Shown: positions 1,078-18,131, numbered from the stretch's first letter. The stretch is DNA of 20,000 nt from an uncultured virus (IMG/VR IMGVR_UViG_3300002773_000047) (IMGVR_UViG_3300002773_000047); one strand, 5' to 3'. Notes: generated by a model from the letters alone, not told the origin. Made by a program: numbers and translations.

Positions 1078-3096
1078 ATGCACGGCTTCAAACCCGCCCC
1101 CAAGCGCGCCCATGCGCAACACCTTGCCGAGGGAGGCCTTGTGCGCGGCTTGGTGCGCAAAGTGATGGGCATTCCCGAGCCCTCAGACACGGGCGCCGCG
1201 GCGCCGGCGGCCACACCAGCTGCGCCGCCTCCCGCGCCAGCGCCGGCCCCCGAGAAGGCGATCACCCAGTACGCGGGCATGGGCGCCACCGAGCGTCGCA
1301 TGAAGGCCATGGGCCTGAAAGACGGTGGGCCGGTGCGTGGGCCAGGCACCGGCACCTCCGACAGCATCGAAACCGAGGTTCGACCGGGCAGCTACATCAT
1401 GCCGGCGGACTCCACCGAGCAGCTTGGCGAGGACGGCGTGGCCGCATTGGGCTTCAGCCCGGAGAAGGTGCCGGTGAACCTGAGCAACGGCGAATACCAA
1501 CTGCCGCCCGAGCAGGTACATGCTGTCGGCGTGGAGGCGCTCGACGCGATCAAGGACGCTACCCATGCATCGGCCCCAGGCCCGCGCGGTTTCGCGCCGA
1601 GCGCGGCCGAACCGCCGGTATTCTTCGCCGACGGTGGGCTGGTTGATGAAGATCCCCGTAAGGCGCGCAACCCGCCATCCGCTGCTTCACTGGATGTCAG
1701 CGCCAGCATCCCTGCGCCCTTGCCGATGCTGACGGCCTCGCTGCCGCCCAGTCCGCAGGCGCTGCAGCTGGCCGCCAACGAGAGGGCTGCAGCCACGCCC
1801 GCACCGGCGCCCTCATCGCAGACGAGCCCACTGGCCCAGACCCAAGGGGCTGCATTCGGCGTATTCAGGCGTGAGCCGACGGCGGGGACGCGAGGCGGCA
1901 TGATGCAGCCCTACGTTGCAACCGGCCCCGCGTCGTTCGAGCCAGCAAAGGTGCAGGAGGGCACAGGACGGCTCGATGCATTCAACGATCCGCGCTCGAC
2001 GTTGTTCAAGGGCGAGGCTGATGCGGCACCTGCGCCGACCAGCCGGGGATTCGCCGGTGTGGGCGAAGGCTGGGGCAGTGGCGCGAAGCCTGTGGCAACG
2101 ACCGTCGCCCCGGCAGCGGCGCCTGCAGTACGCCCGACTGCCGCGCCTGTAGCTGCGCCGATCGCACCTGCTATCTCGAACGATGCGCCCGCGAGCGCGG
2201 CGGCAACGGCCGCGAGCCAGGTCATGCCGGGCGTGTTCAGGCAGGGCAACAGCTACGGCGACTCGCCGGCCGCTGCCGCGGCGGGCTTCGCGCCACGCTC
2301 GGCGCCGAGCGCGCAGAACATGGCTGCGGCCGACGCGCTCGAGGCGCGTGGCATCGCAGAGCGAGCCGGTGAGCGGGCTGCTGTAGCTGGAGGCTCGGCA
2401 GCTGGGTTCGCACCTGGTAACGGCCTGACGGTGATCGGAGACGACACCCACGCGGATCGTGTGCGCCGGAGCGCGTTCGGCGCGGCGAGCACGCCGTACC
2501 GAGGATCGCCAAACGGACAGCTCACAGCCAACCAGGTGCGTGTGCTGGCCGGCATGGACGAGGCAAACGGTCGAAACGCGCTCCAGCGCGACACCACCGC
2601 CGCGAACAATGCCGCTTCGCTGGAGCGCGAAGCGATCCAGCAGGCTGGCGCATCCGGCCGGACAGCGGTGCAGGAGGCGGGCGCCAATGTTCGCGCGGGC
2701 GCTACCAACGATGTGCAGCGTGGCGAACTGGCCCTGCGGCAGGAGGCACAGGGGTTTCAAACTCGCGGCGCCCAGCGCGTGGAGAAGCTGTACGAGCAGT
2801 ACGAGAAGGCCAAGCCCGAGGAGCGGGCGGCCATCGCAGAGCAGATCCGCACGATGACGGGCAAGGAGCACCCGAGCCGCTTCACCGTGGTGCCCGGCGG
2901 GCAGGAAATCGACCCGACCACCCAGCAATCCGTCACGAGGCCGGCGCGCGTCTTCAACAACCAGACCGGACAGTTCGTCGAGCAGGGTCAGGCGCCGCGA
3001 GCAGGCCTCCCTCCGGGGATGACCCGACAGGTTGGCACGTCCAACGGGAAGCCGGTCTACGAGGATGCACAGGGCAAACGGTTCATCGGCGGCTGA
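1078..3096 (+). CDS. Ala/Pro-rich phage protein, 672 aa, putative internal virion/ejection protein
   Basis: ATG 1078 with GAGAGG at 1065-1070; contains DGGPVRGPGTGTSDSI and FADGG motifs familiar from phage tape-measure/internal virion proteins; directly upstream of the giant virion gene. Confidence 0.75.
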   Translation: MHGFKPAPKRAHAQHLAEGGLVRGLVRKVMGIPEPSDTGAAAPAATPAAPPPAPAPAPEKAITQYAGMGATERRMKAMGLKDGGPVRGPGTGTSDSIETEVRPGSYIMPADSTEQLGEDGVAALGFSPEKVPVNLSNGEYQLPPEQVHAVGVEALDAIKDATHASAPGPRGFAPSAAEPPVFFADGGLVDEDPRKARNPPSAASLDVSASIPAPLPMLTASLPPSPQALQLAANERAAATPAPAPSSQTSPLAQTQGAAFGVFRREPTAGTRGGMMQPYVATGPASFEPAKVQEGTGRLDAFNDPRSTLFKGEADAAPAPTSRGFAGVGEGWGSGAKPVATTVAPAAAPAVRPTAAPVAAPIAPAISNDAPASAAATAASQVMPGVFRQGNSYGDSPAAAAAGFAPRSAPSAQNMAAADALEARGIAERAGERAAVAGGSAAGFAPGNGLTVIGDDTHADRVRRSAFGAASTPYRGSPNGQLTANQVRVLAGMDEANGRNALQRDTTAANNAASLEREAIQQAGASGRTAVQEAGANVRAGATNDVQRGELALRQEAQGFQTRGAQRVEKLYEQYEKAKPEERAAIAEQIRTMTGKEHPSRFTVVPGGQEIDPTTQQSVTRPARVFNNQTGQFVEQGQAPRAGLPPGMTRQVGTSNGKPVYEDAQGKRFIGG

Positions 3097-3118
3097 TGAC
3101 AGGGCGCTGCAGAGCGCT

Positions 3119-3159
3119 CCCCTGTAGGGTTCGACGCACAGAGCGCCCGTCGGAAGACT
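3119..3159 (+). promoter_or_regulatory. Phage late-promoter-like motif, copy 2
   Basis: CCCCTGTAGGGTTCGAC (3119-3135); TCGACG, 17-nt spacer, AAGACT (3154-3159); ATG of the giant gene 7 nt downstream with no clear Shine-Dalgarno. Confidence 0.7.
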
Positions 3160-3165
3160 GGCGCA

Positions 3166-6100
3166 ATGGCTGGCGAAACTCTCAAGCCCTTCGACGGGCA
3201 ACTCGATACCACACCGCACAACCTCACCCCGTTCGCGGGTGAGCTCGATCCGCCCGATGCAAAGCGCACCGTGCTCGGCACCGCAAAGGATGTCGGGGTC
3301 ACGGCGCTGAAGGGCGCGGTCGGCTTGCCGCAGAGCTTCGTCGGCCTGGCCGACATCGTGACGGGTGGCCGCGCTGGCAAAGCTCTGGAGCAGGCTGGAG
3401 TCGGCTTCGAGGAGACACAGAAGTTCCTCGACGACCAGTACTCCGACGCACAGAAGGCCGCCAATCGCAAGGTGCAGGCAGCCGATGGCTTCGTCGATAC
3501 GGCCAAGACCATGCTGGAGAACCCCAGCACCATCGCTACCAGCGTGGGCGAGTCGATCCCGCAGATGCTCGGCGGCGCAGGTGTGGCGCGCGGTCTGCTC
3601 AAGGTCGCACCCAAGGTGGCGCCTGCCATCGCTGGTGCCATCGGCGAGGGCGTGCTGGGCGCCGGCTCGCAAGCAGAGCAGATCCGCCAAGAGACGCAAG
3701 ACGGGTTGCTCACGCCGAAACAGGCGGCCTTGTCCGCCGCGACCGGCGCTGCGACTGCCGGCTTCGGTGCGCTCGGCGGCCGGCTCGCGCAGCGGCTCGG
3801 TATCGGTGACGCCGACACGATGCTGGCGCAGGGTGCAATCCATGGCGCCGGGCCGGCTTCTCAGCGCTCACTCGCGCGCCAGGTCGGCGCAGGCATCCTG
3901 TCCGAGGGCGTGCTCGAAGAGCTGCCGCAGTCGATGTCCGAGCAGGCGCTGCAGAACCTCGCGCTGGACAAGCCCGTCGGAGAAGGTGTCGGCAAGGCCG
4001 CCGCCGCCGGGTTGCTCGCAGGCGGTGCCATGGGCGGCGGTGCCGCGCTGTTGCACGGCGCGACTGGTCAGCATGCCCCGAATCGGGCGGAGCCCGGTAG
4101 CGCGGAGCGCGTGCCCGGCGAGCAGCTCTCGCTGTTGCCGGTGGACGAAGCTCCGGCAGCCGCGGCGGCGAACGAGCTGCCCGCCGTTGCGGGCGGCCTG
4201 GCCAGCGTGCAGCGCACCTTCGATCCGCGCGACCCGGCCAGCCGGCCGCCGCTGGATGTGATGCCCACGGCCCCCACCGATGGAGTGGAGTTCGAGGCGG
4301 CGCCACAGGGCGCACGCGAGTTCAGCACGGGCAACCTTTCGCTCGCTGATGAAGCGCAGCCCGTGCGCCCCTCCGAAAAGATGGGGCTGGACCCTGCTGC
4401 AGGCCCGCTGTCCACTGCCGCCGCGATGGCGGTGGATGGTGGCGCGCACGACGTGATGAACGCGGCCGCTCAACTCGCCGCTCAGACCGAAGCCGCCGAC
4501 GGCAAGGGCACGAAGCCGGCAGCAGCTTCTCCGGCACCCGCCAGTGTGCCGATGGCGAACGTCAACGCCGAAACCGGCGAGATCTCCGGACAACCGCAAG
4601 ACCGAGAGGCCGAACTGCGGGCACGCCTGGAGTTCGTGCGCCAACAGGCCGCGTCGAACGGCTGGGACCAGCGCCTGATCGCCGAGCGCGACAGCGCGCG
4701 AGCTGAACTGGCCGCACTTGCGCCCGCTGCCGCAGCGCCGACCAGCGTGCAGGAGGGCATCGCTCAAGCGCGCGCCCGCCGCGCAGCGCCCGAATCCGCA
4801 CCGCAACCCAAAGGAGAAGCCCTTGGCACTCAAGCCGACCAAGCCCAGCAAGCAGGCACGCAACAAGCGCCGGCAGGAACAGAAGCGCCAGCAGCTGAGC
4901 CAATCGCGTCCGCCACAACGCTGACGCCCGCGCCGGCAGCACCGGCTGTATCGAACGCGAAGCGCGAGAAGGCGGTGCGCCGCGTGGAAGAAGGGCGCGC
5001 ATGGTTCTTGTCCCGCGACAAGGCGCTGTCCTTCGTGGACACGTCGGGCCTCGCGGACACGCACGAAGTGGTGCCGGACAACCGCCGTTTCGTTGTGCAG
5101 GCCAAGGCCGAACAGCCGGCACAGGATGCGCAGCCGCAAACCGCTGCGCCGGCCGATCAGCTGGCGGACTTGCGCCGCCGACGCGCCGAGGCCGAGCCGG
5201 GCACGCCCCTGCGCCGCGACATCGATAACGACATCGCGGCGTTGGAGCGCGAACAGCAGCAAGCAGTTCGCCGGCCTGAAGCGGTAGCGCCGGTGGATGC
5301 TGCGGCGAACGAAGCCGCCACCAGCCCGCAGAACGACCTGCCCGAGCCTAGTCAGGCCCAGAAAGAGGCGGGCAACTACAAGATGGGCCACCTGTCCGGT
5401 GACGAGGTACAGGGCCTGCGCATCAGCGTGGAGAACCCGCACGGCAGCACGCGCAGCGGCACCTCGCCGGACGGGACCGAGTGGAGCAACACGATGGCCG
5501 CACACTACGGCTACGTGAAGGGCTCCGAGGCAGCAGACGGCGACCACGTGGATGTGTTCGTCGGGCCGGCAGCCGCGACAGCACCGACGGTCTACGTGGT
5601 GGACCAGATCAACGCGGATGGCTCCTACGACGAGGCCAAGGCGCTGATGGGGTTCAACAGCGAAGCCGAGGCCTTGGCCGCCTACAAGGGGAGCTACAAC
5701 AAGGGCTGGAAGGTCGGTCCGGTCACCGCGATGTCGATGGACGACTTCAAGGCTGCGCTCGCGGACGGGCGCCTGAAGAAGCCGCTCTCGCCCACATTGA
5801 GCGAGCCCGTGCGCGAATCCTCGCCCGCTCCAGCAGCGCAGCGCGCTACGACGATGGAGACGGCGCGCACCGCGCTGGCTTCGTACTTCGATTGGTATCT
5901 CAGCCGCAATCCGAAGGCATCCCGCCCGATGGGCGGGATCTATCAGGGCAACAGCTTCACGCTCGACGCCGGCGGCGCGCCATTCACGAAGGCGGGCCAG
6001 GTACAGGTGAACGGCTTTAAGGAACTGACCTTCAACTACACGGCCGCGTGGAAAGAGGCTCAGTCGCGCGCCGCCGCAGCAGCGCCGGCCGCCGCCCCGA

Positions 6101-9100
6101 TTGCTGCTACCAAAGCAGGAGACGAAAATGGACGAAATGCAGGAACTGTACCGACCGAACGACTACCCGCCGCCGATCAAGGAAGCGATGCGCGCGATGC
6201 CGGCGCTGGCGACCGAGATCGCCAACCGGTGGATGCTCGGGTGGCCGAAGCGGGTGAAGGCGCTGATCGAGGCGAGCGAGTTCCTGCCGGCGCTGAAGGA
6301 GCAGGAGGAGGCCGAGCGGAGAGCGTACAGCGACTCCGGGAATCGGCACCTGGCGAGGCACGAGATAGCCGAGCTGTACGGCCTGAGCGACAGTCCGCCG
6401 ACGCTGTAGCCGACCCGGCGACCGCCGAGGCCTCGCCAAAGCCCGAGCTCGACCAGTCGGGCGACCACACGCTGGATGCCGACGATATCGGCAAGGGTGG
6501 GCTCACCAAGAAGTACCGCGACAACATCGCTGCCATCCGCATCCTGAAGGCGCTCGCCAGCGAGAGCCGCAAGGCCACCCCGGAGGAGCGCAAGCAGATC
6601 GCGCGCTACGTCGGCTGGGGTGCGCTGAAGGGCGTGTTCGACCCGCAGAACAAGCAGTGGGCCAAGGAATTCGCCGAGCTGCGCGAGTTGTTGACCGATG
6701 CCGAGTACAAGGCCGCTCGCGCGTCGATGCTGAACGCGCACTACACGGCGCCGGTGGTGGTCAACGGCATCTACGATGCGCTCGAGCGCATGGGGTTCAC
6801 CGCTGGCCGCATTCTCGAACCGGCGGTGGGAACCGGCAACTTCTTCGGCCTGATGCCCGCGAGCATGCGCAAGCGCTCGCAGCTGCATGGCGTGGAGCTG
6901 GACCCGCTCACCAGCCAGATCGCGGCGGCGCTGTATCCGAGCGCCAAGGTGGCGCGGGCCACCGCGTTCCAGGACTTCCAGGCCCCGTCCGAGTACTTCG
7001 ACCTGGCGGTGGGCAATCCGCCATTCGGCTCGGAGCCCATCGTCGATGACGACCGCTCGCCGTATTCGGGTTTCTCGATCCACAACTACTTCTTCGCCAA
7101 GAGCATCGACAAGCTGCGCCCCGGTGGCCTGCTGACGATGGTGGTGTCGCACAACTTCCTTGACGCCAAGAACGAAGCAGCACGGCAGTGGATCGCCGAT
7201 CGGGCCAACCTGGTGGCAGCGGTCCGGCTGCCGCGAACCGTGTTCAAGGAGAACGCCGGCACCGACGTGGTGACCGACATCGTGGTGCTCCAGAAGAAAA
7301 CGGAATCCGAGCGCGCGAGCGGATTGGGCGATGCGGCGTGGGTGAAGGCCGGCCAGCAGACCCTGACCAACCCGAAGACCGGCGAGGCGACGCAGCACAA
7401 CGTCAGCAGCTACTTCCTGACCAATCCCGATGCGGTGCTGGGCACGCCGGCGGCGGCCGGCGGGATGTATCGCCTGGGCGAGTACACCGTGGAGCCCTCC
7501 GGCGATCTGGCGCAACAGCTGAAGGCATGGGCCACCGCGCTCCCGGAAGACCTCTATCAGCCTGTGGAGCGCACGCACGAGCAGGAAGCTGCCGACGTGG
7601 TGGTGCCTGACGGTGTGAAGGTTGGTTCGTTCTACGTGGACGACAGCGGCCGCGTGCAGATGCGCGGCCCGGATTCGCTGGGCAATCGAACGGCAGAGCC
7701 GTGGACGCCGCCCAACGCGAAGGCTGCCGAGCGCATGAAGGGGATGGTTGGCCTGCGCGACGCGCTGCGAGCACAGATGCGCCTGGAGCGCTCCCCGGAC
7801 TCTACCGACGGACAGATCGAGCAGCACCGCCGCGAGTTGAATCGCCTCTATGACGGGTTCCAGAGCAAGTACGGCTACCTGAACGACCCGACCAACCGCC
7901 GCATCTTCCTGGACGACACCGAGTCGGCCCTGGTGCTGGCGCTGGAGTTCGACTACGACCGTGGCGTGAGCAAGGCGGTGGCCGAGCGCGAGGACATCGA
8001 GCCGCGTGCGCCCAAGGCAATCAAGGCCGACATCTTCGCGCGGCGCGTGATGTTCCCGCCCGCGGACAACATCAAGGTGAGCAACGCCAAGGACGCGCTG
8101 CTGGCCAGCCTGAACTACAAGGGCCGGCTGGATGCCGACTACATGGCGACGCTGTACGACAAGTCACCGGCCCAGATCGTGTCGGAACTTGGTGACGTGG
8201 TGTATGCCGACCCGGTGAACGGGCTCGTGATGGCCGACGAATATCTGTCGGGCGACGTGAAGACGAAGCTGGCCGAAGCAGAGGCCGCCGCGCGTGACGA
8301 CCCGGCGCTTCGCCGCAACGTGGAGGCCCTGCGCAAGGTCATTCCGGCCGACAAGCGGCCGAGCGAGATCCACGCGGCCATGGGCGCGGCTTTCATACCG
8401 TCGGAACTATTCCAGCAATTCGCCAAGGAAGTGACCGGCGCCGACGCGCGCGTCACCTACCTGCGCGCCACCGGTCAATGGCTGGTGGACTACACGTCCC
8501 AGCCCAACCCGGCGCTCAACACGGCGAAGTGGGGCATTGGCAGGATGACCGCGCAGAACATCTTCATGCGCACGATGGCCGGCCAGGGCGTGGTGGTCAC
8601 GGACACCATCCGCGACCCGAACGGTGGTACCCGCACCGTGGTGCTGGAGAAGGAAACGGAGGCCGCGCGCGAGAAGCAGGCCGCGATGAAGGCCGAATGG
8701 CAGCGCTGGCTGTGGAGCGACCCTGAGCGCGCCGACCGTGTGGCGGGCATCTACAACGACAAGATGAACCGCATCGTGGTGCGGCGCTTCGATGGCTCGC
8801 ATATGACCTTCCCGGGCATGTCGCCCGCGATGGAGTTGCTGCCGCACCAGAAAGATGCCGTATGGCGCGCGCTTCAGCAGCGCCAGATCCTGCTGGATCA
8901 CGTCGTCGGTGCTGGCAAGACCTTCGAGGTTGTGGCTGCCATCATGGAAATGCGCCGGCTGGGCATTGCGCGCAAGCCGATCGTCACGGTGCCCAACCAC
9001 CTCACCCTGCAGTGGCGCAGCGAGTTCTCGCGCCTCTACCCGGCGGCCAACGTGCTGGCGGCCACGCCCGACGACTTCACCAAGGGCAATCGGGAGAAGT

Positions 9101-12100
9101 TCTTCTCCAAGATCGTCACCGGCGACTGGGATGCCGTCATCATCGGCCATTCCAGCCTGAAGAGGATCGCGCTGCCGGCCGAGACAGAAAAGGCCGTGCT
9201 GGAAGAGCAGATTACCGAGTTGGCCGACAGCATCGGCGAAATGAAGCGCGCCCGCGGCGACCGGAATGTCGTGCGCGACATGGAGAGCATCAAGGCCCGT
9301 CTGGAAGCCCGCATGAAGCAGCGCGTGCAAGCCCTTGGCGAGCGCGACAAGGTAGTGACCTTCGACGAGCTCGGCGTCGATGCTTTCGCCATCGACGAGC
9401 TGCACGAGTTCAAGAACCTCTTCTACAACTCCACCATGGAGCGCGTGCCCGGCATGGGCAACCCCGGCGGCTCGGACAAGGCGTTCGACCTGTTCGTGAA
9501 GGCGCAGTACCTCTTCGACGCGCTGGGGGACAAGGCGCCGCTGATGGGCGCGACCGGCACGCCGGTTTCCAACAGCCTGGTGGAAATGTTCAATATGCAG
9601 CGGTTCCTGCAGTACCCGACGCTGAAGGCGCAGGGCCTGCACGTCTTCGACGCCTGGGCCAAGCAGTTCGGCAGCGTGGAATCGCTGTACGAGGTGTCGC
9701 CGTCTGGGACCGGCTACCGCCAGGCCTCGCGCTTCGCCAAGTTCAAGAACCTGCCGGCGCTGATGGGCATGTACCAGACCTTCGCCGACACGGTGACGCT
9801 GGACGATCTGAAGGCGCAAGAGGAAGCCCGAGGCCGCACATTCCCGGTGCCGCAGGTGGCCGGCGGCCGCCCGGTGAACGTGGTGGCGAAGCGCTCGCCG
9901 GAGGTGGCCAACTTCATGGGCGTGCCGCAACTGGACATCCAGGGCGGGCGAGTGCAGTTCGGGTTCAACCCGGCCGCTGGGGAGCGCGCAGTTATCGAGA
10001 AGGCCGAGGACGGCAACAGCTGGCGCGCCGAAACCCGCGTGCCGCAGCCCGACGAGAAGGAGATTCGGCAGCTGATCGGCTCGGCCAAGACCGAAGAGGA
10101 TGCCAAGCTGCTGGTGGTCGAAGCCGCCCTGTCGCCCAAGATCAAGGTGGACCCGAAGTCGATCCTCGGCCAGTTCGCCGACCTGAAGCGGCTGACGAAG
10201 GAAACGAAGGGGAAGGTCAACGCGCTGTCGCTGACCGGCCAAGCCAACAAGGCGGGCTTGGACTTCCGCCTGATCGACCCGTCGGCGCCCGACTTCGAGG
10301 GCTCGAAGATCAATCTCGCCGTCGACCGCATGCTGGGCACCTACCAGAAGTGGACCAGCGACCGAGGAACGCAACTGGTCTTCTGCGACCTGTCCGTGCC
10401 CCTCTCGGCACGCAGCGGCTTCGGCAGCAAGGAGCGGCGCGTGTACGTGCGAGACGACGGCGCCCTGGTGCACAAGAAGGGCACCATGCACACGGTTCGC
10501 GGCCACGAAGACTTGCCGTTCTTCGTGGTGAAGGAGGGCGGCAAGGACGCCAAGGCCTTCGCCATCTACGACGCCGCCACGGGCTTGCGCGTGCACACCG
10601 GCCTGCCGGCCAAGGGCATTGCGACCGACTGGGCGGCGCAGGCCCTGAACGACGACGGCCGCCGCCAGCGCTGGATCGACGCCCGCGACCGCATCGGCGA
10701 CCTCCAGCAGGACGAGATCGACGACTACAACAACGCCAACGAGATCGACACCGAGGAAACCGAATCGATCTCGCTGGCCGACATCGCAGGCATGTCGGGA
10801 GCCACCGCGTTCTCGGTGTACGACGACATCAAGGGCAAGTTGATGGCGCGCGGCGTGCCGGAGCGCGAAATCGCCTTCATCCACGACTACAACACGCCCG
10901 CAGCGAAGGACAAGCTGTTCAAGGCGGTGAATCGGGGCGACATCCGCTTCCTGCTGGGCTCCACGCCGAAGATGGGCGCCGGCACCAACGTGCAGGAGCG
11001 CCTGGTCGGGCTGCATCACATCGACGCGCCCTGGCGCCCGAGCGACCTGGAGCAACGCGAGGGCCGCATCATCCGCCGCGGCAATGCGCTCTATGCTCGT
11101 GACCCGGATGGTTTCGAGGTGGAAATCTACCGCTACGCCACCGAGCAGACCTACGACACCCGCCGGTGGCAGATCCTGGAGCACAAGGCTCGCGGCATCG
11201 AGCAGCTGCGTAAGTACGACGGCACCCTCAACGAGATCGACGACATCGAGGGGGAGGCCGCCAACGCGGCCGACATGAAGGCCGCCGCCTCGGGCGACCC
11301 GCTCATCCTGGAAGAAACACGGCTACGCAACGATGTGCGCCGCCTCGAATCACTGCAAGCCTCCCACGCGGACGAAACGGCTTCGATGGTGCGCCAGGCG
11401 CGCGACCAACAACGCTTCGCGCAAGACTGGGGCCCGAAGGAGCTGGAAACGTTCCGAGGTCTGCAGGCTGCCGCCGAGGCCAACCCGGTGCCCAAGGATG
11501 GCTTCGCTGGCCTGACCGTTGCCGGGAAGACGATCACCGACCGCGAAGCGGCTATCAAGGCCGTCAAGCGGGGCATCGATCGTGTGTTCGTAAGCGGCGG
11601 GCAGGAGGAGTTCCAGTACCGAGGCGTGACCTTCATGCTGGAAGGCACGCCCGACCACGTGGAGCTCAATTCGCCCACCGGTGGGCTGGATTCCTATCGG
11701 CCGGCCAGGGACGTGCTGCCGTCGGCGGCGGGCATCCTGACCCGCTTCGGCAACTACATCAACCGTCTCCCGGCGCACATCGTCGACCTCGATGCGAAGA
11801 TCACGGAAGCGAAGCAGGCGGCAGTGCAATTGCGCGAGCAGGCCGGCAAGCCATTCGCCCAGGCGAAGGAGCTGGAGTCAGCACGCGAGGCACATCGCCG
11901 GGTGCAGCGCCGGCTCGTGGCGAAGGGGCCGGACATCCCGCTGAACCAGCGACCCGCCCTGCAGAAGGCCATGGCCGAGCAGCGCCAGCAGCTCATCGAG
12001 CAGGGGTTCGGGGATACGCTCGAGGAGTTCGGCGGTGGCGCCGACGATGCGCAGTTCCGCCGGGACGGGACCGAAATGCTGTCGCCCGAGGCAGCCAGAG

Positions 12101-15100
12101 CCATGCGGGCGCTCCTGCCTAACTACTCGCCGCAGGCTCGCGCACAGGCTGTAGCGTCTGTGACCAAGACGGTGGAGGCGATCCGCGCAGGCTGGGGCAA
12201 CGGGCCCGAGGTGATCGTGGCGTTCGACATGGGTGACCCGGTTGTGCCCGAGGCGGCCCGCCGCGCGGACCTGAAGCAGCGCAGCGGCGGCGCACGGGGC
12301 GCTCCCGAGGGCTTCTACTACCGTGGCAAGGCCTACTTGATGGCCTCGCGGCTGCCCACGGCCAACGATGCGGCGCGCGTGCTCTTTCACGAAGTACTCG
12401 GCCACCACGGGCTGCGCGGCCAGTTCGGCAAGGGGCTGGACGACGTGCTGAACCAGATCGGCACCATGCGCCGCGCTGACGTGGACGCGAAGATCAAGGA
12501 ATACGGGCTGCGCGGCGTCAACAAGCTCGACCGGCGCGCCGCGGCGGAGGAAGTCCTGGCCGAAATGGCGCAGACACACCCCGAGCTGCACTTCGTGCGC
12601 CGCGCCATCGCCGCGATCCGCACCTGGCTGCGCCAGCACGTGCCGGGTTTCAGCAACCTGCGGATGACGGACGACGAGATCGTGCGCAACTTCATCCTGC
12701 CGGCTCGGCGCTTCGTTGAGCAGGGCGGCCCGGACGACGGGCCCGGCGACGGGCTGCGCTTCAGCCGTGGTGACGCAGGCCCCGCCTCGACCAACAGCCT
12801 CGATACCCCCATCGCCGCCAACGACGAAGGTGTAGCGAACTTCTGGCACTGGTACAGTGGGCAGGATGGAAGCCTCAAAGACACCCGAAGCAGCACGCAA
12901 GGATCTGGAGGAACTGCTGGCGGAGCTGCCGCCGGTGGGCCCGGCCGAGATGGCGGCGCACCTGGGCGACTCGGACCCGTTGATGCGCAAGGCCGCCCGC
13001 TCGTATTTTTCCACGGCACGCGAGACGACTTCACCGCGTTCGATACCGAGCACCCAAACCGAAAAGACGTAGGCTGGCTCGGCCGCGGCGTCTACGGTGC
13101 GAGCGACCCGGCGGACGCCAACTACTATGCCGGCGCCAAGCGCGGAGGCGGTGGGCAGCGCGTCATGCCGCTGTATTTCGCGGTCACGAACCCCTACGTT
13201 GCCACGCCGGAGATCAAGGCCCGGCTGAAGCGGGCCACGCAGGCCCAGGTCGATCGCTTCACGGCGAACCTGCGCGCGATGGGGCATGACGGCGTGACGC
13301 TCACTGTCGAAGATGGCTCGGTGGAGATCGTCGCGTTCGATCCCAGCCAGGTGAAATCGGCCATCGGCAACAGTGGGGCATTCGACGCTGGCACCTCGGA
13401 CATCCGGTTCAGCCGATCCACGGTGCAGGACTTCGCCAAGAAGGCCACCGCCGAGCTCAATAAGACTTTCAATGCGCCCGGCAAGTTGTCTTGGTGGCAC
13501 AAGACCGTGGGCACCATGTACAACCTCGCGGAGCGTTCGCCAGCCTTCAAGGCGGTGTTCGACTCAGCGCAAGGGTTCGTCGACGACGTGAGCTTCTACG
13601 CCAACGACGCGGCCGAACTGGCGCCCAAGCTGCTGCCGAAGCTGGAGACGTGGCGCGATATCAAGAAAGCGCCGGTGGCCGCGGCCGACAACGCCGCAGT
13701 GGCGAAGCCGGTCTTCGAAGGCACGCTGACCTGGGCGCGAGACGAACAGGGCATGCCGGTACCGGTGCAGTCGCTCATCGACGCGGCGGCCGAGCTGTCG
13801 GCCGACCAGAAGGCGCAGCGCCTGCTGCGAAACGGGCAGATCGACGAGCGCATGCTGAAGGCATGGCAGGGCATGCCAATGGAATCCTATGAGAAGGCCA
13901 TCAGCACGCGCTTCGAGTCGCGCATGCTGCAGCCGGGCGTCGTCTGGACCGATGCGGAGCTGCGCTCCATGTTCAAGCTCACGGACGACCAGATCGCGCT
14001 CTACCACGAGTTCCGCGAGACGACCGACCGAAGCCTGGACACGATGGCACGCGCCGACATGCTGCGTTTCGTGGGCGACGATGCCAAGGGCATGCGTGGC
14101 ATGGTGATGGATGCGCCGGACGCCCAAGCGGCGGCCGTGCTGCTGCGCGATCACCTGGTGCAGTTGGCCAACGAGCAGCCTGACCGCGCGACTCAGATCC
14201 TGAACACCGCCAACGGCATCATCGACCGAGCCGACAAGGTGCGCGAGCTGCAGGCCCGCGGGTATGCGCCGCTGTCGCGCTTCGGCCGCTACTCGGTCGA
14301 CGTGGTGGACGCTGCCGGGGAGCGGCAGTACTTCGGCCTGTTCGAGACGGCGCGCGAGGCCAACAACATGGCCGCCCAGATGCGGGAAGAGTTCGGCGAT
14401 GCCACCGTCACCCAAGGCACGCTCTCGGAGGAGGCCTTCAAGCTCTTCGCTGGCGTGACGCCCGAGACGCTGGAACTCTTCGGCAATGCCCTTGGCCTCG
14501 ATTCGACCGGCGAAAGCGCGCAGGACCAGGCTTTCCAGGAATACCTGCGGCTGACGAAGACCAACCGCAGCGCAATGCGGCGGCTGATCCATCGCAAGGG
14601 CATCGCCGGTTTCAGCGAAGACGTGGGCCGCGTGCTGGCTTCCTTCATCTACTCGAACGCGCGCCAGACGGCCGCCGGCCTGCACATGGGCGACCTCGGC
14701 GAGGCGGTGCAGGCCATCCCGAAGGAACAGGGCGAGCTGAAAGATGCCGCCGTGCGCCTGGCCGACTATGTGAAGAACCCGCAGGAGGAGGCGCAGGCGG
14801 TGCGCGGGCTGCTGTTCGCGCAGTACCTGGGCGGCTCGGTCGCGTCGGCGTTCGTGAACATGACCCAGCCTATCGCTGTGACGATGCCGTGGCTGAGCCA
14901 GTACGGCGGCGCGCGCGCCGCGGCCGCGCAGATCGGCCGGGCGGCCAAGAACATCGCCACGCGCGGCTTCGAGTACGAACCGGATCTCGCCGCGGCGCTC
15001 AAGCGCGCCGAGGACGAGGGCACCGTGAGCCCGCAGGAGGTGCATCAGCTGATGGCGCAGGCGCGCGGCGCGAGCTCCCTGCGCTCCGGCGACGGCACGC

Positions 15101-16293
15101 GCGGCGGCGAGCTGCGCGCGATGGGCCAGAACGCACTGTCGCGCCTGTCGCTGGCCTGGGGGAAGCTCTTCGGCGCCGCCGAGCAGGTGAACCGCCGCAT
15201 CACGTTCGTCGCGGCCTACCGCACGGCGAAGGCGCAGGGCATCGATGACCCGGCAGGGTTCGCTCGCAAGGCGATCACCGAAACGCAGTTCCTCTACTCG
15301 AAGGCGAACAAGATGGAGTGGGGCAGGGGGGCGATCGGCGGAACGCTGATGACCTTCAAGACCTACTCGGTGGCCTACCTCGAGCTGCTGCACCGCATGT
15401 ACACGCAGGGCGGGCCCGAGGGCAAGCGCGCCGCGCTGCTGGCGCTGGGCATGCTGATGCTGATGGGCGGCGCCGGCGGCCTGCCGTTCGAGGAAGACCT
15501 GGAGGATGCGGTCGACGCGCTGGCGCAGATGCTTGGCTACAACTTCTCGACGAAGAAGGCCCGCCAGGAATTCCTGGAGAGCCTGCTGCCGAAGTCGATC
15601 GCGCAGTTCATCGACAAGGGCGTGAGCGGTCTGCCCGGCGCGCCTCTGGACGTGTCGGGCCGCCTTGGCATGGGGAACCTCATCCCCGGCACCGGCCTGC
15701 TGCTGGAGAAGACCAGCCACGCGCGCGACCTGCTGGAGATCGCGGGCCCGGCCGGCGACTTCGCCAGCCGCATCCTCTCCGGCGGTCGCAGCATGCTCAC
15801 CGGCGACGTGGGCGCCGGACTGCTGGAAATGTCGCCCGCAGCGGTGCGCAACGCGGCCAAGGGCGTGGACATGGCCGCGACTGGCATGTACCGGGATGCC
15901 AAGGGCTACAAGGTGCTGGACACGAACACGCTGGAGGCGGCCCTCAAGGGCATCGGCTTCCAGCCGAACAGCGTGGCCACCATCCAGGAGGCGAACGGCA
16001 TCAACCAGGGCGCGAAGGCGTTCTACAACCTGCGTGCGCAGGAGATCCGGGCGCTGTGGGCACAGGGCATCTTCGAGGGCGATCAGCAGAAGGTGCAGGA
16101 AGCTCGCGACCAGGTGGCCGCGTGGAACCGGAAGAACCCCGAGCAGCCGATGCTGGTGCGCATCCCCGACGTGATGCGCCGGGTGCGCGAGATGCGCAAG
16201 TCCAAGGATGAGCGGATCGCCGATACCGCGCCGCGTGTGATGCGTGCTCAGATGCGGGAGGATCTGGCCCGGGCTCGAGCTTCTGAAGCCTGA
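3166..16293 (+). CDS. Giant (4375 aa) DarB-like polyvalent phage protein: Gly/Ala-rich N-terminus, pyrophosphatase-like domain, N6-adenine DNA methyltransferase, SNF2/SF2 helicase, HExxH metallopeptidase, ART-like domain, PLxRFG C-terminal region
   Basis: Uninterrupted ORF. HYGY...DGDHVDVF at ~5300-5780; MTase ILEPAVGTGNF (~6811) and NPPF (7015-7026); Walker A HVVGAGKT (8899-8922), DELH (9394-9405), ATGTP, PWRPSDLEQREGR (~11030); HEVLGH (12388-12405); VDAQGRPLVFFHGT...GRGVY (~12980-13100); PLSRFG (14269-14286). The MTase+SNF2 fusion is the architecture of phage P1 DarB. Confidence 0.92.
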   Translation: MAGETLKPFDGQLDTTPHNLTPFAGELDPPDAKRTVLGTAKDVGVTALKGAVGLPQSFVGLADIVTGGRAGKALEQAGVGFEETQKFLDDQYSDAQKAANRKVQAADGFVDTAKTMLENPSTIATSVGESIPQMLGGAGVARGLLKVAPKVAPAIAGAIGEGVLGAGSQAEQIRQETQDGLLTPKQAALSAATGAATAGFGALGGRLAQRLGIGDADTMLAQGAIHGAGPASQRSLARQVGAGILSEGVLEELPQSMSEQALQNLALDKPVGEGVGKAAAAGLLAGGAMGGGAALLHGATGQHAPNRAEPGSAERVPGEQLSLLPVDEAPAAAAANELPAVAGGLASVQRTFDPRDPASRPPLDVMPTAPTDGVEFEAAPQGAREFSTGNLSLADEAQPVRPSEKMGLDPAAGPLSTAAAMAVDGGAHDVMNAAAQLAAQTEAADGKGTKPAAASPAPASVPMANVNAETGEISGQPQDREAELRARLEFVRQQAASNGWDQRLIAERDSARAELAALAPAAAAPTSVQEGIAQARARRAAPESAPQPKGEALGTQADQAQQAGTQQAPAGTEAPAAEPIASATTLTPAPAAPAVSNAKREKAVRRVEEGRAWFLSRDKALSFVDTSGLADTHEVVPDNRRFVVQAKAEQPAQDAQPQTAAPADQLADLRRRRAEAEPGTPLRRDIDNDIAALEREQQQAVRRPEAVAPVDAAANEAATSPQNDLPEPSQAQKEAGNYKMGHLSGDEVQGLRISVENPHGSTRSGTSPDGTEWSNTMAAHYGYVKGSEAADGDHVDVFVGPAAATAPTVYVVDQINADGSYDEAKALMGFNSEAEALAAYKGSYNKGWKVGPVTAMSMDDFKAALADGRLKKPLSPTLSEPVRESSPAPAAQRATTMETARTALASYFDWYLSRNPKASRPMGGIYQGNSFTLDAGGAPFTKAGQVQVNGFKELTFNYTAAWKEAQSRAAAAAPAAAPIAATKAGDENGRNAGTVPTERLPAADQGSDARDAGAGDRDRQPVDARVAEAGEGADRGERVPAGAEGAGGGRAESVQRLRESAPGEARDSRAVRPERQSADAVADPATAEASPKPELDQSGDHTLDADDIGKGGLTKKYRDNIAAIRILKALASESRKATPEERKQIARYVGWGALKGVFDPQNKQWAKEFAELRELLTDAEYKAARASMLNAHYTAPVVVNGIYDALERMGFTAGRILEPAVGTGNFFGLMPASMRKRSQLHGVELDPLTSQIAAALYPSAKVARATAFQDFQAPSEYFDLAVGNPPFGSEPIVDDDRSPYSGFSIHNYFFAKSIDKLRPGGLLTMVVSHNFLDAKNEAARQWIADRANLVAAVRLPRTVFKENAGTDVVTDIVVLQKKTESERASGLGDAAWVKAGQQTLTNPKTGEATQHNVSSYFLTNPDAVLGTPAAAGGMYRLGEYTVEPSGDLAQQLKAWATALPEDLYQPVERTHEQEAADVVVPDGVKVGSFYVDDSGRVQMRGPDSLGNRTAEPWTPPNAKAAERMKGMVGLRDALRAQMRLERSPDSTDGQIEQHRRELNRLYDGFQSKYGYLNDPTNRRIFLDDTESALVLALEFDYDRGVSKAVAEREDIEPRAPKAIKADIFARRVMFPPADNIKVSNAKDALLASLNYKGRLDADYMATLYDKSPAQIVSELGDVVYADPVNGLVMADEYLSGDVKTKLAEAEAAARDDPALRRNVEALRKVIPADKRPSEIHAAMGAAFIPSELFQQFAKEVTGADARVTYLRATGQWLVDYTSQPNPALNTAKWGIGRMTAQNIFMRTMAGQGVVVTDTIRDPNGGTRTVVLEKETEAAREKQAAMKAEWQRWLWSDPERADRVAGIYNDKMNRIVVRRFDGSHMTFPGMSPAMELLPHQKDAVWRALQQRQILLDHVVGAGKTFEVVAAIMEMRRLGIARKPIVTVPNHLTLQWRSEFSRLYPAANVLAATPDDFTKGNREKFFSKIVTGDWDAVIIGHSSLKRIALPAETEKAVLEEQITELADSIGEMKRARGDRNVVRDMESIKARLEARMKQRVQALGERDKVVTFDELGVDAFAIDELHEFKNLFYNSTMERVPGMGNPGGSDKAFDLFVKAQYLFDALGDKAPLMGATGTPVSNSLVEMFNMQRFLQYPTLKAQGLHVFDAWAKQFGSVESLYEVSPSGTGYRQASRFAKFKNLPALMGMYQTFADTVTLDDLKAQEEARGRTFPVPQVAGGRPVNVVAKRSPEVANFMGVPQLDIQGGRVQFGFNPAAGERAVIEKAEDGNSWRAETRVPQPDEKEIRQLIGSAKTEEDAKLLVVEAALSPKIKVDPKSILGQFADLKRLTKETKGKVNALSLTGQANKAGLDFRLIDPSAPDFEGSKINLAVDRMLGTYQKWTSDRGTQLVFCDLSVPLSARSGFGSKERRVYVRDDGALVHKKGTMHTVRGHEDLPFFVVKEGGKDAKAFAIYDAATGLRVHTGLPAKGIATDWAAQALNDDGRRQRWIDARDRIGDLQQDEIDDYNNANEIDTEETESISLADIAGMSGATAFSVYDDIKGKLMARGVPEREIAFIHDYNTPAAKDKLFKAVNRGDIRFLLGSTPKMGAGTNVQERLVGLHHIDAPWRPSDLEQREGRIIRRGNALYARDPDGFEVEIYRYATEQTYDTRRWQILEHKARGIEQLRKYDGTLNEIDDIEGEAANAADMKAAASGDPLILEETRLRNDVRRLESLQASHADETASMVRQARDQQRFAQDWGPKELETFRGLQAAAEANPVPKDGFAGLTVAGKTITDREAAIKAVKRGIDRVFVSGGQEEFQYRGVTFMLEGTPDHVELNSPTGGLDSYRPARDVLPSAAGILTRFGNYINRLPAHIVDLDAKITEAKQAAVQLREQAGKPFAQAKELESAREAHRRVQRRLVAKGPDIPLNQRPALQKAMAEQRQQLIEQGFGDTLEEFGGGADDAQFRRDGTEMLSPEAARAMRALLPNYSPQARAQAVASVTKTVEAIRAGWGNGPEVIVAFDMGDPVVPEAARRADLKQRSGGARGAPEGFYYRGKAYLMASRLPTANDAARVLFHEVLGHHGLRGQFGKGLDDVLNQIGTMRRADVDAKIKEYGLRGVNKLDRRAAAEEVLAEMAQTHPELHFVRRAIAAIRTWLRQHVPGFSNLRMTDDEIVRNFILPARRFVEQGGPDDGPGDGLRFSRGDAGPASTNSLDTPIAANDEGVANFWHWYSGQDGSLKDTRSSTQGSGGTAGGAAAGGPGRDGGAPGRLGPVDAQGRPLVFFHGTRDDFTAFDTEHPNRKDVGWLGRGVYGASDPADANYYAGAKRGGGGQRVMPLYFAVTNPYVATPEIKARLKRATQAQVDRFTANLRAMGHDGVTLTVEDGSVEIVAFDPSQVKSAIGNSGAFDAGTSDIRFSRSTVQDFAKKATAELNKTFNAPGKLSWWHKTVGTMYNLAERSPAFKAVFDSAQGFVDDVSFYANDAAELAPKLLPKLETWRDIKKAPVAAADNAAVAKPVFEGTLTWARDEQGMPVPVQSLIDAAAELSADQKAQRLLRNGQIDERMLKAWQGMPMESYEKAISTRFESRMLQPGVVWTDAELRSMFKLTDDQIALYHEFRETTDRSLDTMARADMLRFVGDDAKGMRGMVMDAPDAQAAAVLLRDHLVQLANEQPDRATQILNTANGIIDRADKVRELQARGYAPLSRFGRYSVDVVDAAGERQYFGLFETAREANNMAAQMREEFGDATVTQGTLSEEAFKLFAGVTPETLELFGNALGLDSTGESAQDQAFQEYLRLTKTNRSAMRRLIHRKGIAGFSEDVGRVLASFIYSNARQTAAGLHMGDLGEAVQAIPKEQGELKDAAVRLADYVKNPQEEAQAVRGLLFAQYLGGSVASAFVNMTQPIAVTMPWLSQYGGARAAAAQIGRAAKNIATRGFEYEPDLAAALKRAEDEGTVSPQEVHQLMAQARGASSLRSGDGTRGGELRAMGQNALSRLSLAWGKLFGAAEQVNRRITFVAAYRTAKAQGIDDPAGFARKAITETQFLYSKANKMEWGRGAIGGTLMTFKTYSVAYLELLHRMYTQGGPEGKRAALLALGMLMLMGGAGGLPFEEDLEDAVDALAQMLGYNFSTKKARQEFLESLLPKSIAQFIDKGVSGLPGAPLDVSGRLGMGNLIPGTGLLLEKTSHARDLLEIAGPAGDFASRILSGGRSMLTGDVGAGLLEMSPAAVRNAAKGVDMAATGMYRDAKGYKVLDTNTLEAALKGIGFQPNSVATIQEANGINQGAKAFYNLRAQEIRALWAQGIFEGDQQKVQEARDQVAAWNRKNPEQPMLVRIPDVMRRVREMRKSKDERIADTAPRVMRAQMREDLARARASEA
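4823..4924 (+). CDS. Putative nested small basic peptide (33 aa, MALKPTKPSKQARNKRRQEQKRQQLSQSRPPQR) in the +1 frame of the giant gene
   Basis: AAAGGAG at 4810-4816, 6-nt spacer, TTG start; nested codons mostly G/C-ending while the giant frame here uses many CAA/GCA/GGA/ACA codons. Confidence 0.45.
   Translation: MALKPTKPSKQARNKRRQEQKRQQLSQSRPPQR
6128..6409 (+). CDS. Nested hypothetical protein (93 aa, MDEMQELYRPNDYPPPIKEAM...GLSDSPPTL) in the +1 frame of the giant gene
   Basis: AGGAG at 6117-6121, 6-nt spacer, ATG; by hand count 85 of 93 codons end in G/C; globular helical-looking sequence, while the giant frame is a low-complexity G/R/D/A linker with rare codons (CTA, CGA, GGA). Confidence 0.8.
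   Translation: MDEMQELYRPNDYPPPIKEAMRAMPALATEIANRWMLGWPKRVKALIEASEFLPALKEQEEAERRAYSDSGNRHLARHEIAELYGLSDSPPTL
12850..12858 (+). promoter_or_regulatory. Putative internal extended -10 promoter (TGGTACAGT)
   Basis: TGn-TACAGT matches the extended -10 pattern; the ATG of a nested ORF begins 8 nt after it (12866). Confidence 0.4.
12866..13072 (+). CDS. Nested hypothetical protein (68 aa, MEASKTPEAARKDLEELLAELPPVGPAEMAAHLGDSDPLMRKAARSYF...) in the +1 frame of the giant gene
   Basis: Amphipathic helical sequence; core codons almost all G/C-ending; giant frame reads as a 39-aa Gly-rich insert (QDGS...RLGP) between NFWHWYSG and VDAQGRPLVFFHGT; upstream extended -10. Confidence 0.55.
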   Translation: MEASKTPEAARKDLEELLAELPPVGPAEMAAHLGDSDPLMRKAARSYFSTARETTSPRSIPSTQTEKT

Positions 16294-16294
16294 A

Positions 16295-16660
16295 TCAGCC
16301 GGGGAAGCCGTTGTCGCGGAGCACCTGACGGCCCGGCGTGGTCATGGCCAGATTCCCGTTTTTGTCACGAGCGATCCAACCAGCCATCTCGAAGCCTTGG
16401 ATCGCTTCCCCAGTGACCTGTCGGGTCTTTTGGTTCCAGTGGTGCAGTGCCTCTATGAGTGGCGAGATTTGTCTCGCAGGGGGTTGGGGTTTGTAGTCCG
16501 CAAGATCGGGGAGTTCATCGATCGGTGGCTTGCATCCACGCTGGATATAAATGTGGGGATCGAGGGCGTAATTGCCGCCGGCCGTATCGACAACCTGCAC
16601 ATTGACGATCGTTCCGTCTTTCAGCCTCTGGACGTAGAGGCCGGTGTAGCTGCTGCTCAT
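16295..16660 (-). CDS. Hypothetical protein, 121 aa (accessory/moron gene)
   Basis: ATG at 16660 preceded by AGGAG; fills the gap between the giant gene and lysis cassette; lower GC than flanks; plausible two-domain protein, the C-terminal part weakly resembling a winged helix (GWIARDKNGNLAMTTPGRQVL). Confidence 0.7.
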   Translation of the reverse strand: MSSSYTGLYVQRLKDGTIVNVQVVDTAGGNYALDPHIYIQRGCKPPIDELPDLADYKPQPPARQISPLIEALHHWNQKTRQVTGEAIQGFEMAGWIARDKNGNLAMTTPGRQVLRDNGFPG

Positions 16661-17602: not shown

Positions 17603-18124
17603 ATGCTGCCCGACTTCAAGACTCCTCTGCTGTGGGTGCTCGGCCTCGCTCTCGTCGCCACACTGGCCACGGCCGGCATCGAGCGCACGCGCGCAGCTGG
17701 TGCTCGCGCTGATGCTACGACCGCGCGCAAGGATCTCGCCGACTACCGTGCTTCGCAGGCCGAATCCGGCCGTCTGGCCGAGCGCGCCGCGCGCACCCAA
17801 GAACAGACCTGGCGCGCTCGCGTCGATGGAGTGATTCAAGATGGTCAAAAACAGATTGCCCGTGCTCGGGACGATGCTGGCCGTGCTGGTGCTGCTGAAC
17901 GCCGGCTGCGCGAACAGCTTGACGCCTATCGCGCCGCCGTCCGCGCAGCCACCACAGCGCCCGCGGCTGCCGGCGGAAGCCCGCCAGCCGAAGCCGCCCT
18001 CGATCTGCTCACCGACCTGCTCAGCGGGAGTGGAACGGCTCTTCGGGAGCTGGGGCAGTTCGCTGACGCTGCCCACAGCGCCGGCACCATCTGCGAGCGG
18101 TACGCCGACTCCACAGAGCCCTGA
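17603..18124 (+). CDS. Rz: Rz-like inner-membrane spanin (DUF2514-like)
   Basis: GGGGG RBS-like run; N-terminal TM helix, coiled-coil body, C-terminal GTICERYAD; follows the endolysin. Confidence 0.85.
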   Translation: MLPDFKTPLLWVLGLALVATLATAGIERTRAAGARADATTARKDLADYRASQAESGRLAERAARTQEQTWRARVDGVIQDGQKQIARARDDAGRAGAAERRLREQLDAYRAAVRAATTAPAAAGGSPPAEAALDLLTDLLSGSGTALRELGQFADAAHSAGTICERYADSTEP

Positions 18125-18131
18125 GAACTAG
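17841..18131 (+). CDS. Rz1: Rz1-like outer-membrane lipoprotein spanin overlapping Rz in the +1 frame
   Basis: GGAG at 17828-17831; signal peptide with lipobox LNAGC; Pro-rich mature region with CSPTC; classic Rz/Rz1 overlap. Confidence 0.85.
   Translation: MVKNRLPVLGTMLAVLVLLNAGCANSLTPIAPPSAQPPQRPRLPAEARQPKPPSICSPTCSAGVERLFGSWGSSLTLPTAPAPSASGTPTPQSPEN

Follow-up and report, generated by a model that had tools for sequence, protein, structure and literature searches.

The DNA analysed here, a stretch of 20,000 nucleotides (the window) from the uncultured virus IMGVR_UViG_3300002773_000047, is part of a provirus record of 64,641 bases. It contains a giant gene inside which three short open reading frames (ORFs) lie out of frame, here named ORF1, ORF2 and ORF3. 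Judged by comparison of sequences, ORF2 is a real embedded gene, an older autonomous small gene, and the giant gene is very probably a phage polyvalent virion protein gene that holds at least one true gene within a gene. Coordinates (Table 1) are positions in the window, on the + strand unless stated. The loci (relatives) compared carry L-numbers, WIN denotes the window's own sequence, and 8P is Pseudomonas phage 8P.

The giant gene region has a guanine-plus-cytosine (GC) content of 64–72%. The encoded protein runs from an N-terminal region through InPase, Eco57I-type N6 methylase, SNF2-type helicase and ART-PolyVal domains to a DarB-like C-terminal region. The Pfam cut-offs are passed by InPase, Eco57I, SNF2/ResIII and ART-PolyVal, Helicase_C being the sole exception. 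PHROGs matches in the C-terminal third include 'DarB-like antirestriction', and a lysis cassette with endolysin and Rz-like spanin genes lies 3′ of the gene. Several unrelated effector domains are joined in one provirus-encoded polypeptide. From this domain set, the PHROGs matches and the lysis genes downstream we conclude that the giant gene encodes a polyvalent virion protein, a term that the available text of Iyer, Burroughs, Anand, de Souza and Aravind (2017; PMC5512222) applies to proteins of phages and conjugative elements.

Table 1. Features of the giant gene and its embedded ORFs (window positions, or residues of the giant protein)
Feature	Position	Strand	Remarks
Giant gene, predicted polyvalent virion protein	3166..16293	+	single ORF, 4375 amino acids (aa); homologous giant ORFs in relatives
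AAAGGAG	4810..4816	+	six bases 5′ of the ORF1 TTG at 4823
ORF1	4823..4924	+	+1 ORF, 33 aa, TTG start, isoelectric point (pI) 12, K/R/Q-rich
Shine-Dalgarno (SD) core AGGAG	6117..6121	+	six bases 5′ of the ORF2 ATG at 6128, inside the giant frame
Giant-frame linker over ORF2	6127..6408	+	A/R/G/E/D-rich, between InPase region and methylase module; constrained only to lack stops
ORF2	6128..6409	+	+1 embedded gene, 93 aa, 10.7 kDa, pI 5.2, predicted five-helix protein; TAG stop 6407-6409
Conserved giant-frame motif ADPATAEASPKPELDQ	6409..6460	+	directly 3′ of the ORF2 stop, leads into the methylase module (DIGKGGLTKKYRDN...)
TGgTACAGT, extended -10-like	12850..12858	+	ends 8 bases before the ORF3 ATG; possible leaderless start; conserved in L056
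ORF3	12866..13072	+	+1 ORF, 68 aa; codons 1-43 (12866-12994) +1-selected; last 25 overlap the ART-PolyVal start
InPase	residues 730-865		Pfam
Eco57I-type N6 methylase	residues ~1262-1355		Pfam
SNF2/ResIII	residues 1889-2016		Pfam
Helicase_C	residues 2566-2639		Pfam, 23.2 bits against a cut-off of 23.5 (below)
ART-PolyVal	residues 3273-3406		Pfam

A preliminary description, made from the sequence alone, had pointed to these three ORFs as same-strand genes in the +1 frame, each with a start signal of its own. We find them as described: all lie wholly inside the giant gene, and the signals are present in the sequence (AAAGGAG for ORF1, AGGAG for ORF2, and the extended −10-like TGgTACAGT for ORF3). 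It had also stated that the giant frame stays open and becomes a linker at each ORF, ahead of or within an enzymatic domain. The frame is indeed open and linker-like, A/R/G/E/D-rich over ORF2 and visibly of low complexity at ORF1 and ORF3. By the Pfam positions ORF1 lies about 145 residues before InPase, ORF2 before the methylase module, and ORF3 before ART, overlapping its first residues. A scan for the sigma-70 consensus over 3100–16400, which is insensitive to extended −10 promoters, found no promoter-like site.

The third-position bias said to move into the nested frames was confirmed by frame-wise GC values and a codon-usage likelihood scan, and at these ORFs only. The difference between GC at codon positions 1 and 3 averages −0.16 over the giant gene (standard deviation 0.17) and exceeds 0.2 in just three regions: 4696–4960, 6040–6451 and 12850–13045. 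Across 6136–6256, GC at the three giant-frame codon positions is 0.92–0.98, 0.62–0.68 and 0.44–0.48, which is the genome's normal coding pattern shifted by one base, that is, a +1-frame coding signature. The codon-usage scan, run on the identical copy L049, flagged the same three places and nothing else. In 39 related giant ORFs all of its flags fell in the +1 offset, the +2 offset having none. Low-GC loci are beyond the reach of the scan: L060–L063, L066, L077 and L081 went unflagged despite their holding ORF2.

Such islands might in principle be untranslated chance open frames, with low-complexity Ala/Gly/Pro/Gln linkers in a genome of 67% GC producing the composition shift as a by-product. 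ORF length is no argument against this, for open +1 stretches of at least 68 codons number 19 in the giant gene and 17.5 on average in 500 codon shuffles, and those of at least 100 codons number 6 and 7.0. The length of a +1 ORF is by itself ordinary here; composition sets the three apart. The low-complexity setting of ORF1 and ORF3 also suits a chance origin, as does ORF1 itself, whose peptide resembles an off-frame read and has no homologue beyond close relatives. We nevertheless regard this explanation as very improbable, given the evidence on ORF2 and ORF3 that follows.

ORF2 has a family. A tblastn search found it at 76.7% identity in 8P, where it is again shifted by +1 within a 'structural protein' of 5145 aa and the positions of ATG and TAG are unchanged. 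In the protein database 119 of 119 candidates (51–163 aa, typically ∼90 aa) proved to be homologues at E ≤ 0.001, the lowest at 42% identity. They have in common motifs such as IANRWMLGWPKRV and HLARHEI and the start MQxLY, which in the window is the second ATG, at 6137.

We classed 82 loci, comprising the window, 8P and 80 that were fetched. ORF2 is embedded in 51 and free-standing in 31. The embedded copies are nested in giant-gene homologues, ORFs of 3000–5100 aa, at 41 of the 82 loci; at eight they lie near the 5′ edge of methylase-helicase ORFs of 2200–2750 aa, and at two, which are the same contig twice, at a 3′ edge. In a tree of 66 distinct ORF2 proteins, embedded and free copies interleave and the starred branches require at least four changes of state, at a resolution that is only rough given the few columns. 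Thirteen rows were excluded from it: ten duplicates, the window among them, and L009, L040 and L048 on account of their length. L009 (9968–10141, Pseudomonas aestuarii) is a 44-aa remnant of the family, and L048 a partial copy whose match is confined to the C-terminal third. A second, diverged paralogue of the family (IANRWMRDWP...) is +1-embedded just 5′ of the main copy at L073:9680–9961 and L018:2058–2408, and some giant genes therefore hold two tandem hidden copies.

Selection acts on the small frame. With the NG86 method, the ratio of nonsynonymous to synonymous substitution rates (dN/dS) of ORF2 is 0.07–0.15 in the window's clade (for WIN versus L054, dN 0.020 and dS 0.286). The median is 0.32 for 241 nested pairs, whose loci are kin and whose counts are not independent, and free-standing copies give 0.10 (57 pairs). 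Over the same bases the giant-frame dN/dS is 3–8 within that clade, and its median over nested pairs is 1.5; the non-coding shadow frame of the free copies gives values like those of the clade. The giant-frame amino-acid sequence across ORF2 is therefore not under selection.

The openness of the giant frame was assessed, for 31 distinct nested copies, by resampling the small gene's synonymous codons according to the codon usage of the locus concerned. The chance of an open giant frame across ORF2 is 0.19 in the window's clade and 0.0016 in L057. The four loci L060–L063, of 39% GC, have an open giant frame, yet in each of them none of 5000 resamplings was open. Purifying selection in the small frame, with giant-frame openness that is not due to chance, indicates that both frames are maintained.

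Start signals are conserved too. Of 38 distinct embedded copies, 33 have an SD core at −17 to −4; at randomly chosen positions in these giant ORFs its frequency is 0.11. Every distinct copy begins with ATG except two, a nested sequence with GTG that was seen twice (L010/L071) and the free L024, where TTG was assigned by script. This bears on the notion that the ORF2 frame is entered by programmed ribosomal frameshifting, giving a truncated N-terminal product that ends in the ORF2 domain. Both frames would then be read from one mRNA, and the window's +1 frame is indeed open for 33 codons before the ATG (span 6029–6409). In several nested loci, however, such as L063, L073 and L001, the +1 frame is closed 5–15 codons before the ATG. 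The conserved SD core and ATG inside the giant frame also speak against a shift, as do the free-standing homologues, which begin at the same Met. On these comparisons of reading frames and start signals we hold frameshifting to be highly unlikely.

An AlphaFold2 model of ORF2 has five helices, with a mean predicted local distance difference test (pLDDT) of 87 and a predicted template modelling score (pTM) of 0.77. For ORF2 the chance-frame idea is excluded by the 119 homologues, the free copies, dN/dS near 0.1, the conserved SD and ATG and this confident fold. We take ORF2 to be real because of its free homologues, the purifying selection in its frame, its conserved SD and ATG, the open giant frame and a fixed place in front of the methylase module. 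The free-standing homologues and the real fold mark the small gene as the older partner.

The place is tight. In 48 of 50 loci the methylase module follows embedded ORF2 directly on its 3′ side, and the remaining two stop at a contig edge; the region 5′ of ORF2 varies among loci. At the 5′-edge loci the large gene begins 15–60 codons before the small one, often with an M..QLDLFG-like N-terminus, and reads through it. In one contig, present as both L003 and L058, the giant frame ends 488 bases past the embedded gene, although homology to methylase and helicase goes on 3′ of that point; either a frameshift or a genuine split may account for this.

Two RefSeq plasmids show the arrangement from the side of annotation. 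In L089 (NZ_CP026547.1) and L090 (NZ_CP021369.1) the small gene is annotated as hypothetical and an 'N-6 DNA methylase' is begun 3′ of it, 177 and 303 bases past its end, respectively. The methylase frame runs open through the small gene and on for 450 (L089) and 430 (L090) bases 5′ of it, back to an MQLDLFG start, so that the large methylase gene is probably annotated too short in both. The expectation that standard annotation would miss such ORFs thus applies to phage records, 8P being annotated with the giant gene only; in these two plasmids it is the methylase that loses sequence.

M(M)QLDLFG or a similar sequence begins the plasmid methylase-helicase genes 5′ of the embedded gene at L016 (9820-), L020, L047, L089 (1323-) and L090 (5568-). 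A KPQLDLF-like motif also stands 3′ of the embedded stop in L020 and L047, and at 6409–6460 the window has a degenerate KPELDQS. The QLDLFG motif resembles the beta-clamp-binding consensus QL[SD]LF.

ORF3 gives a clear signal. Over 12866–12994, WIN and L002, a related prophage in Variovorax paradoxus NBRC 15149, differ at 1, 2 and 9 sites at +1-frame codon positions 1, 2 and 3, compared with 1, 16, 4 and 0, 23, 3 in the two flanks, which is ordinary giant-frame selection. Read in the +1 frame, these first 43 codons have 9 synonymous changes over 33 sites and 3 nonsynonymous over 96; read in the giant frame, 1.5 synonymous and 10.5 nonsynonymous. The three changes at 86 first and second positions are far under the flank rate, and the third-position skew of 9 in 12 has, by our own arithmetic, a binomial p of ∼0.004. 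In four closer relatives all changes in this N-terminal part are +1-synonymous, including one at a first codon position in L055. The last 25 codons, overlapping ART, follow giant-frame selection. Giant-frame third positions are nearly frozen in the N-terminal part: its 43 codons have 2 changes there, compared with 16 in the 62 codons of one flank and 23 in the 76 of the other. First positions of that frame change at the neutral rate, and a composition artefact predicts no such pattern. The switch of selection to the +1 frame is clear here, on few substitutions and within a narrow clade. Conservation of TGgTACAGT proves nothing, since the same bases encode a conserved giant-frame WYS.

For ORF1 the skew is of the same kind and weaker. 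Over 4811–4921, differences at the three +1 positions are 2, 5 and 9 against L054, 2, 5 and 10 against L055, and 4, 5 and 11 against L002, whereas upstream they number 2, 15 and 3, leaning to the giant-frame third position. These three relatives keep the stop and the AAGGAG-TTG, and do not keep the C-terminal half of the peptide. The selection signal is weak and at most suggestive. Tests of ORF3 and ORF1 were limited to close relatives because a metagenome scan with the window's ART domain, meant to reach intermediate divergence, gave five near-identical loci and one at 32%.

ORF1 and ORF3 may alternatively be scars: stretches formerly read in +1, as an engulfed fragment or a compensated pair of frameshifts, and now read in the giant frame only. 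Both are short (33 codons, and 43 constrained ones) and occur in one clade of relatives at least 90% identical, the ORF3 tail merely continues into the ART domain to the first stop, and in L056 both linkers are replaced; no family was found. A dead scar should gain changes evenly across the codon positions, though, and ORF3 has 9 of 12 at the +1 third position since WIN and L002 split; moreover every relative that carries the segment retains both ATG and stop. We consider scars possible and the less favoured explanation of ORF3, which we lean towards reading as a second embedded gene, restricted to a clade and placed ahead of the ART domain. That ORF1 is a third one is doubtful.

Several observations weigh against embedded genes at these two places, and some against the reading of the locus as a whole. 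ORF3 is carried solely by relatives of at least 90% DNA identity, and its single-sequence model is poor (pLDDT 68, pTM 0.29). A whole-library search with ORF3 returned itself and four repeat-type proteins over a HEAT-like stretch, which were not taken as homologues. At the ORF3 site the linker of L056 is a different one, and it contains a +1 ORF whose N-terminal part is without detectable similarity. ORF1 is absent from L056 and would be a peptide of 33 aa, pI 12 and low complexity from a TTG start, and its skew could be mimicked by first-position exchanges among A, T, P and S in an Ala/Pro/Thr/Gln linker. For ORF2, the kinship of the nested loci noted above counts on this side. No RNA run is listed among those that contain the stretch, which are 20 DNA metagenome runs.

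Two further observations concern ORF3. Its residues 16–52 (window 12911–13021) match 15 repeats of the 840-aa protein P0122 (summed E 1.9e-16) and three other proteins (…HLGDSDPLMRKAA…), a stretch that we take to be HEAT-repeat-like. The +1 ORF of L056 was tried as an ORF3 homologue and rejected, the BLASTP similarity being confined to the tail that overlaps ART.

The preliminary description had supposed that the giant gene absorbed small genes by reading through them, and had proposed dN/dS in both frames and a search for free-standing homologues as checks. For ORF2 the outcome is strongly in favour, with purifying selection in the +1 frame, a giant-frame dN/dS above 1, free homologues at 31 loci, and SD and ATG. 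ORF3 passes the first check in codons 1–43, where the substitutions are few and the clade narrow, and it has no homologue beyond relatives of at least 90% identity; ORF1 is weak in selection and has no homologue beyond close relatives.

Expression and origin of ORF2 can be pictured as follows. The protein would be made from its own SD and ATG on the same late mRNA, while ribosomes on the giant frame would read the same bases as an unconstrained A/R/G/E/D-rich linker. The gene would have been engulfed by fusion or by read-through. That engulfed state appears to be present already in the plasmid methylase-helicase genes, whose frame starts 15–60 codons 5′ of the small gene.

What the protein does is suggested by its neighbours. 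The constant position in front of the methylase-helicase module, the occurrence next to relaxases, and the protein's size and charge lead us to propose, tentatively, an escort or inhibitor encoded in cis that would act on the adjacent DNA-acting module, or on the neighbouring relaxase in conjugative elements. Such a protein would keep the module or the relaxase inert, or competent for transfer, in the producing cell. Small acidic chaperones play such a part for translocated DNA-binding proteins. In VirE1/VirE2-type pairs, a small acidic chaperone is encoded just 5′ of a large translocated DNA-binding protein; the ORF2 protein likewise is small, mildly acidic and helical, and its gene directly precedes the coding region of a large DNA-acting protein that is presumed to enter another cell. 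Unlike VirE1, it is encoded inside the reading frame of its putative client, and it has no sequence or fold similarity to that system.

About as likely is an independent anti-defence factor. Here ORF2 would be real and its job unrelated to the giant protein, an anti-defence or establishment factor that hitch-hikes in the linker for co-expression; we rate this, too, as possible without favouring it. The free copies suit it: a methylase-helicase lies within 10 kb in 1 of the 31 loci only, and the other 30, which also tell against a role tied strictly to the module, stand amid genes of conjugative elements for MobA/VirD2 relaxase with LPD7, TraA-like helicase, KfrA, Rv2179c-like exonucleases and metallophosphoesterases. 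A small, mildly acidic protein (family median pI 4.6–5.6) and several interchanges between embedded and free states fit as well. Against it stand the methylase module that adjoins the embedded gene in 48 of 50 loci, and the plasmid copies engulfed in the N-terminal leader of the methylase gene itself; placement so tight would be odd for an unrelated passenger. A complex prediction for ORF2 with the first 830 residues 3′ of it, run without controls, returned 'no answer' at a score of 0.00, which is evidence neither way.

Searches for function give no support to the escort or inhibitor role, nor to the regulators or inhibitors of its own domains that, in the alternative offered by the preliminary description, the giant gene would carry. 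ORF2 has no Pfam family at E ≤ 0.01, its best PHROGs match has E 0.46, and NCBIfam gave no family for the window's protein. Foldseek of the model against PDB and BFVD gave no match at E ≤ 0.001, and the best VIA-align Z among 48,161 chains was 4.7, under the tool's meaningful level for helical bundles. A profile search of PDB sequences reached E 0.46 at best, and the protein atlas returned unnamed clusters of the same family only.

A broader proposal is that the inter-domain linkers of giant polyvalent genes, in phages and plasmids alike, are a regular hiding place of out-of-frame small genes, each for an escort, immunity protein or inhibitor of the effector domain that follows; we think it rather unlikely in that general form. 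The ORF2 family would then serve the methylase-helicase module and ORF3 the ADP-ribosyltransferase. The small protein would be made in the producer cell and left behind when the polyprotein is delivered, and further protein-like +1 islands in relatives would be additional members, the tandem ORF2 paralogue of L073 and L018 among them. The existence of such islands suggests that the architecture may be general. In-frame-like codon usage and a protein-like translation with ATG are seen at L065:2989–3318, L065:3862–4161 and L004:8069–8323 (e.g. MQQSIPLVYEFEMTVPQALKHL… in L065). Another +1 island is common to two distant giant genes (L004:11183–11548 and L059:17246–17530; …RLRA.LC.VPFYAK.AA…) and overlaps the C-terminal end of Pfam LPD37 matches; it is either a second embedded family or a place where both frames are conserved.

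Embedded genes are classic in phages, examples being Rz1 within Rz in lambda and, in phiX174, E within D and B within A. There the inner gene is regarded as the later, overprinted arrival, both frames are constrained and both products are needed. ORF2 resembles them in being a complete small gene in another frame of a larger same-strand gene, with its own ribosome-binding site. It differs in that the small gene is here the older, and the host frame over it is new, a linker of a multi-domain protein unconstrained in sequence. The direction of evolution is unusual because the small gene is the older one, and an older small gene engulfed by a linker-coding frame is what is new here, a variant of the phage embedded genes. 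A layout of the familiar kind may be seen downstream in the window itself, where the Rz-like spanin gene (phrog_312, 17603–18124) is overlapped by a +1-frame 96-aa ORF (17841–18131) that ends 7 bases past it and occupies the usual place of an Rz1-type partner.

In joining InPase, Eco57I-type methylase, SNF2 helicase, ART-PolyVal and a DarB-like C-terminal region, the host gene is like the polyvalent proteins treated in the available text of PMC5512222. Out-of-frame genes inside polyvalent genes are not described in that text: the words 'overlap', 'frameshift', 'internal start' and 'linker' do not occur in it, and 'nested' and 'reading frame' have only unrelated uses. Literature on nested or overlapping genes in polyvalent proteins, on PLxRFG and on phage 8P yielded no report of such genes either. 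PMC8788219 and PMC8227390, as far as the accessible text of these articles goes, treat gene families remodelled out of frame, and overprinting, in bacteria and viruses: one stretch of DNA has two frames and the frame in use changes, one frame being replaced by, or born inside, an existing gene. Here, by contrast, both readings coexist, over a GC range of 39% to 70% and in no fewer than 31 distinct embedded copies.

ORF2 is thus a well-supported overlapping gene of a bacterial virus, documented by dozens of independent sequences over a wide range of GC. The direction of evolution can be read from it: a linker took in a gene that already existed, rather than a new gene arising within an older one. 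Annotation has a blind spot both ways, phage records losing the small gene and plasmid records shortening the methylase-helicase gene. A frame-wise codon-usage scan of giant genes is a cheap route that should reveal more hidden genes. The ORF2 family itself, uncharacterised and with at least 119 members, is linked to the DNA-entry toolkits that phages and conjugative elements carry.

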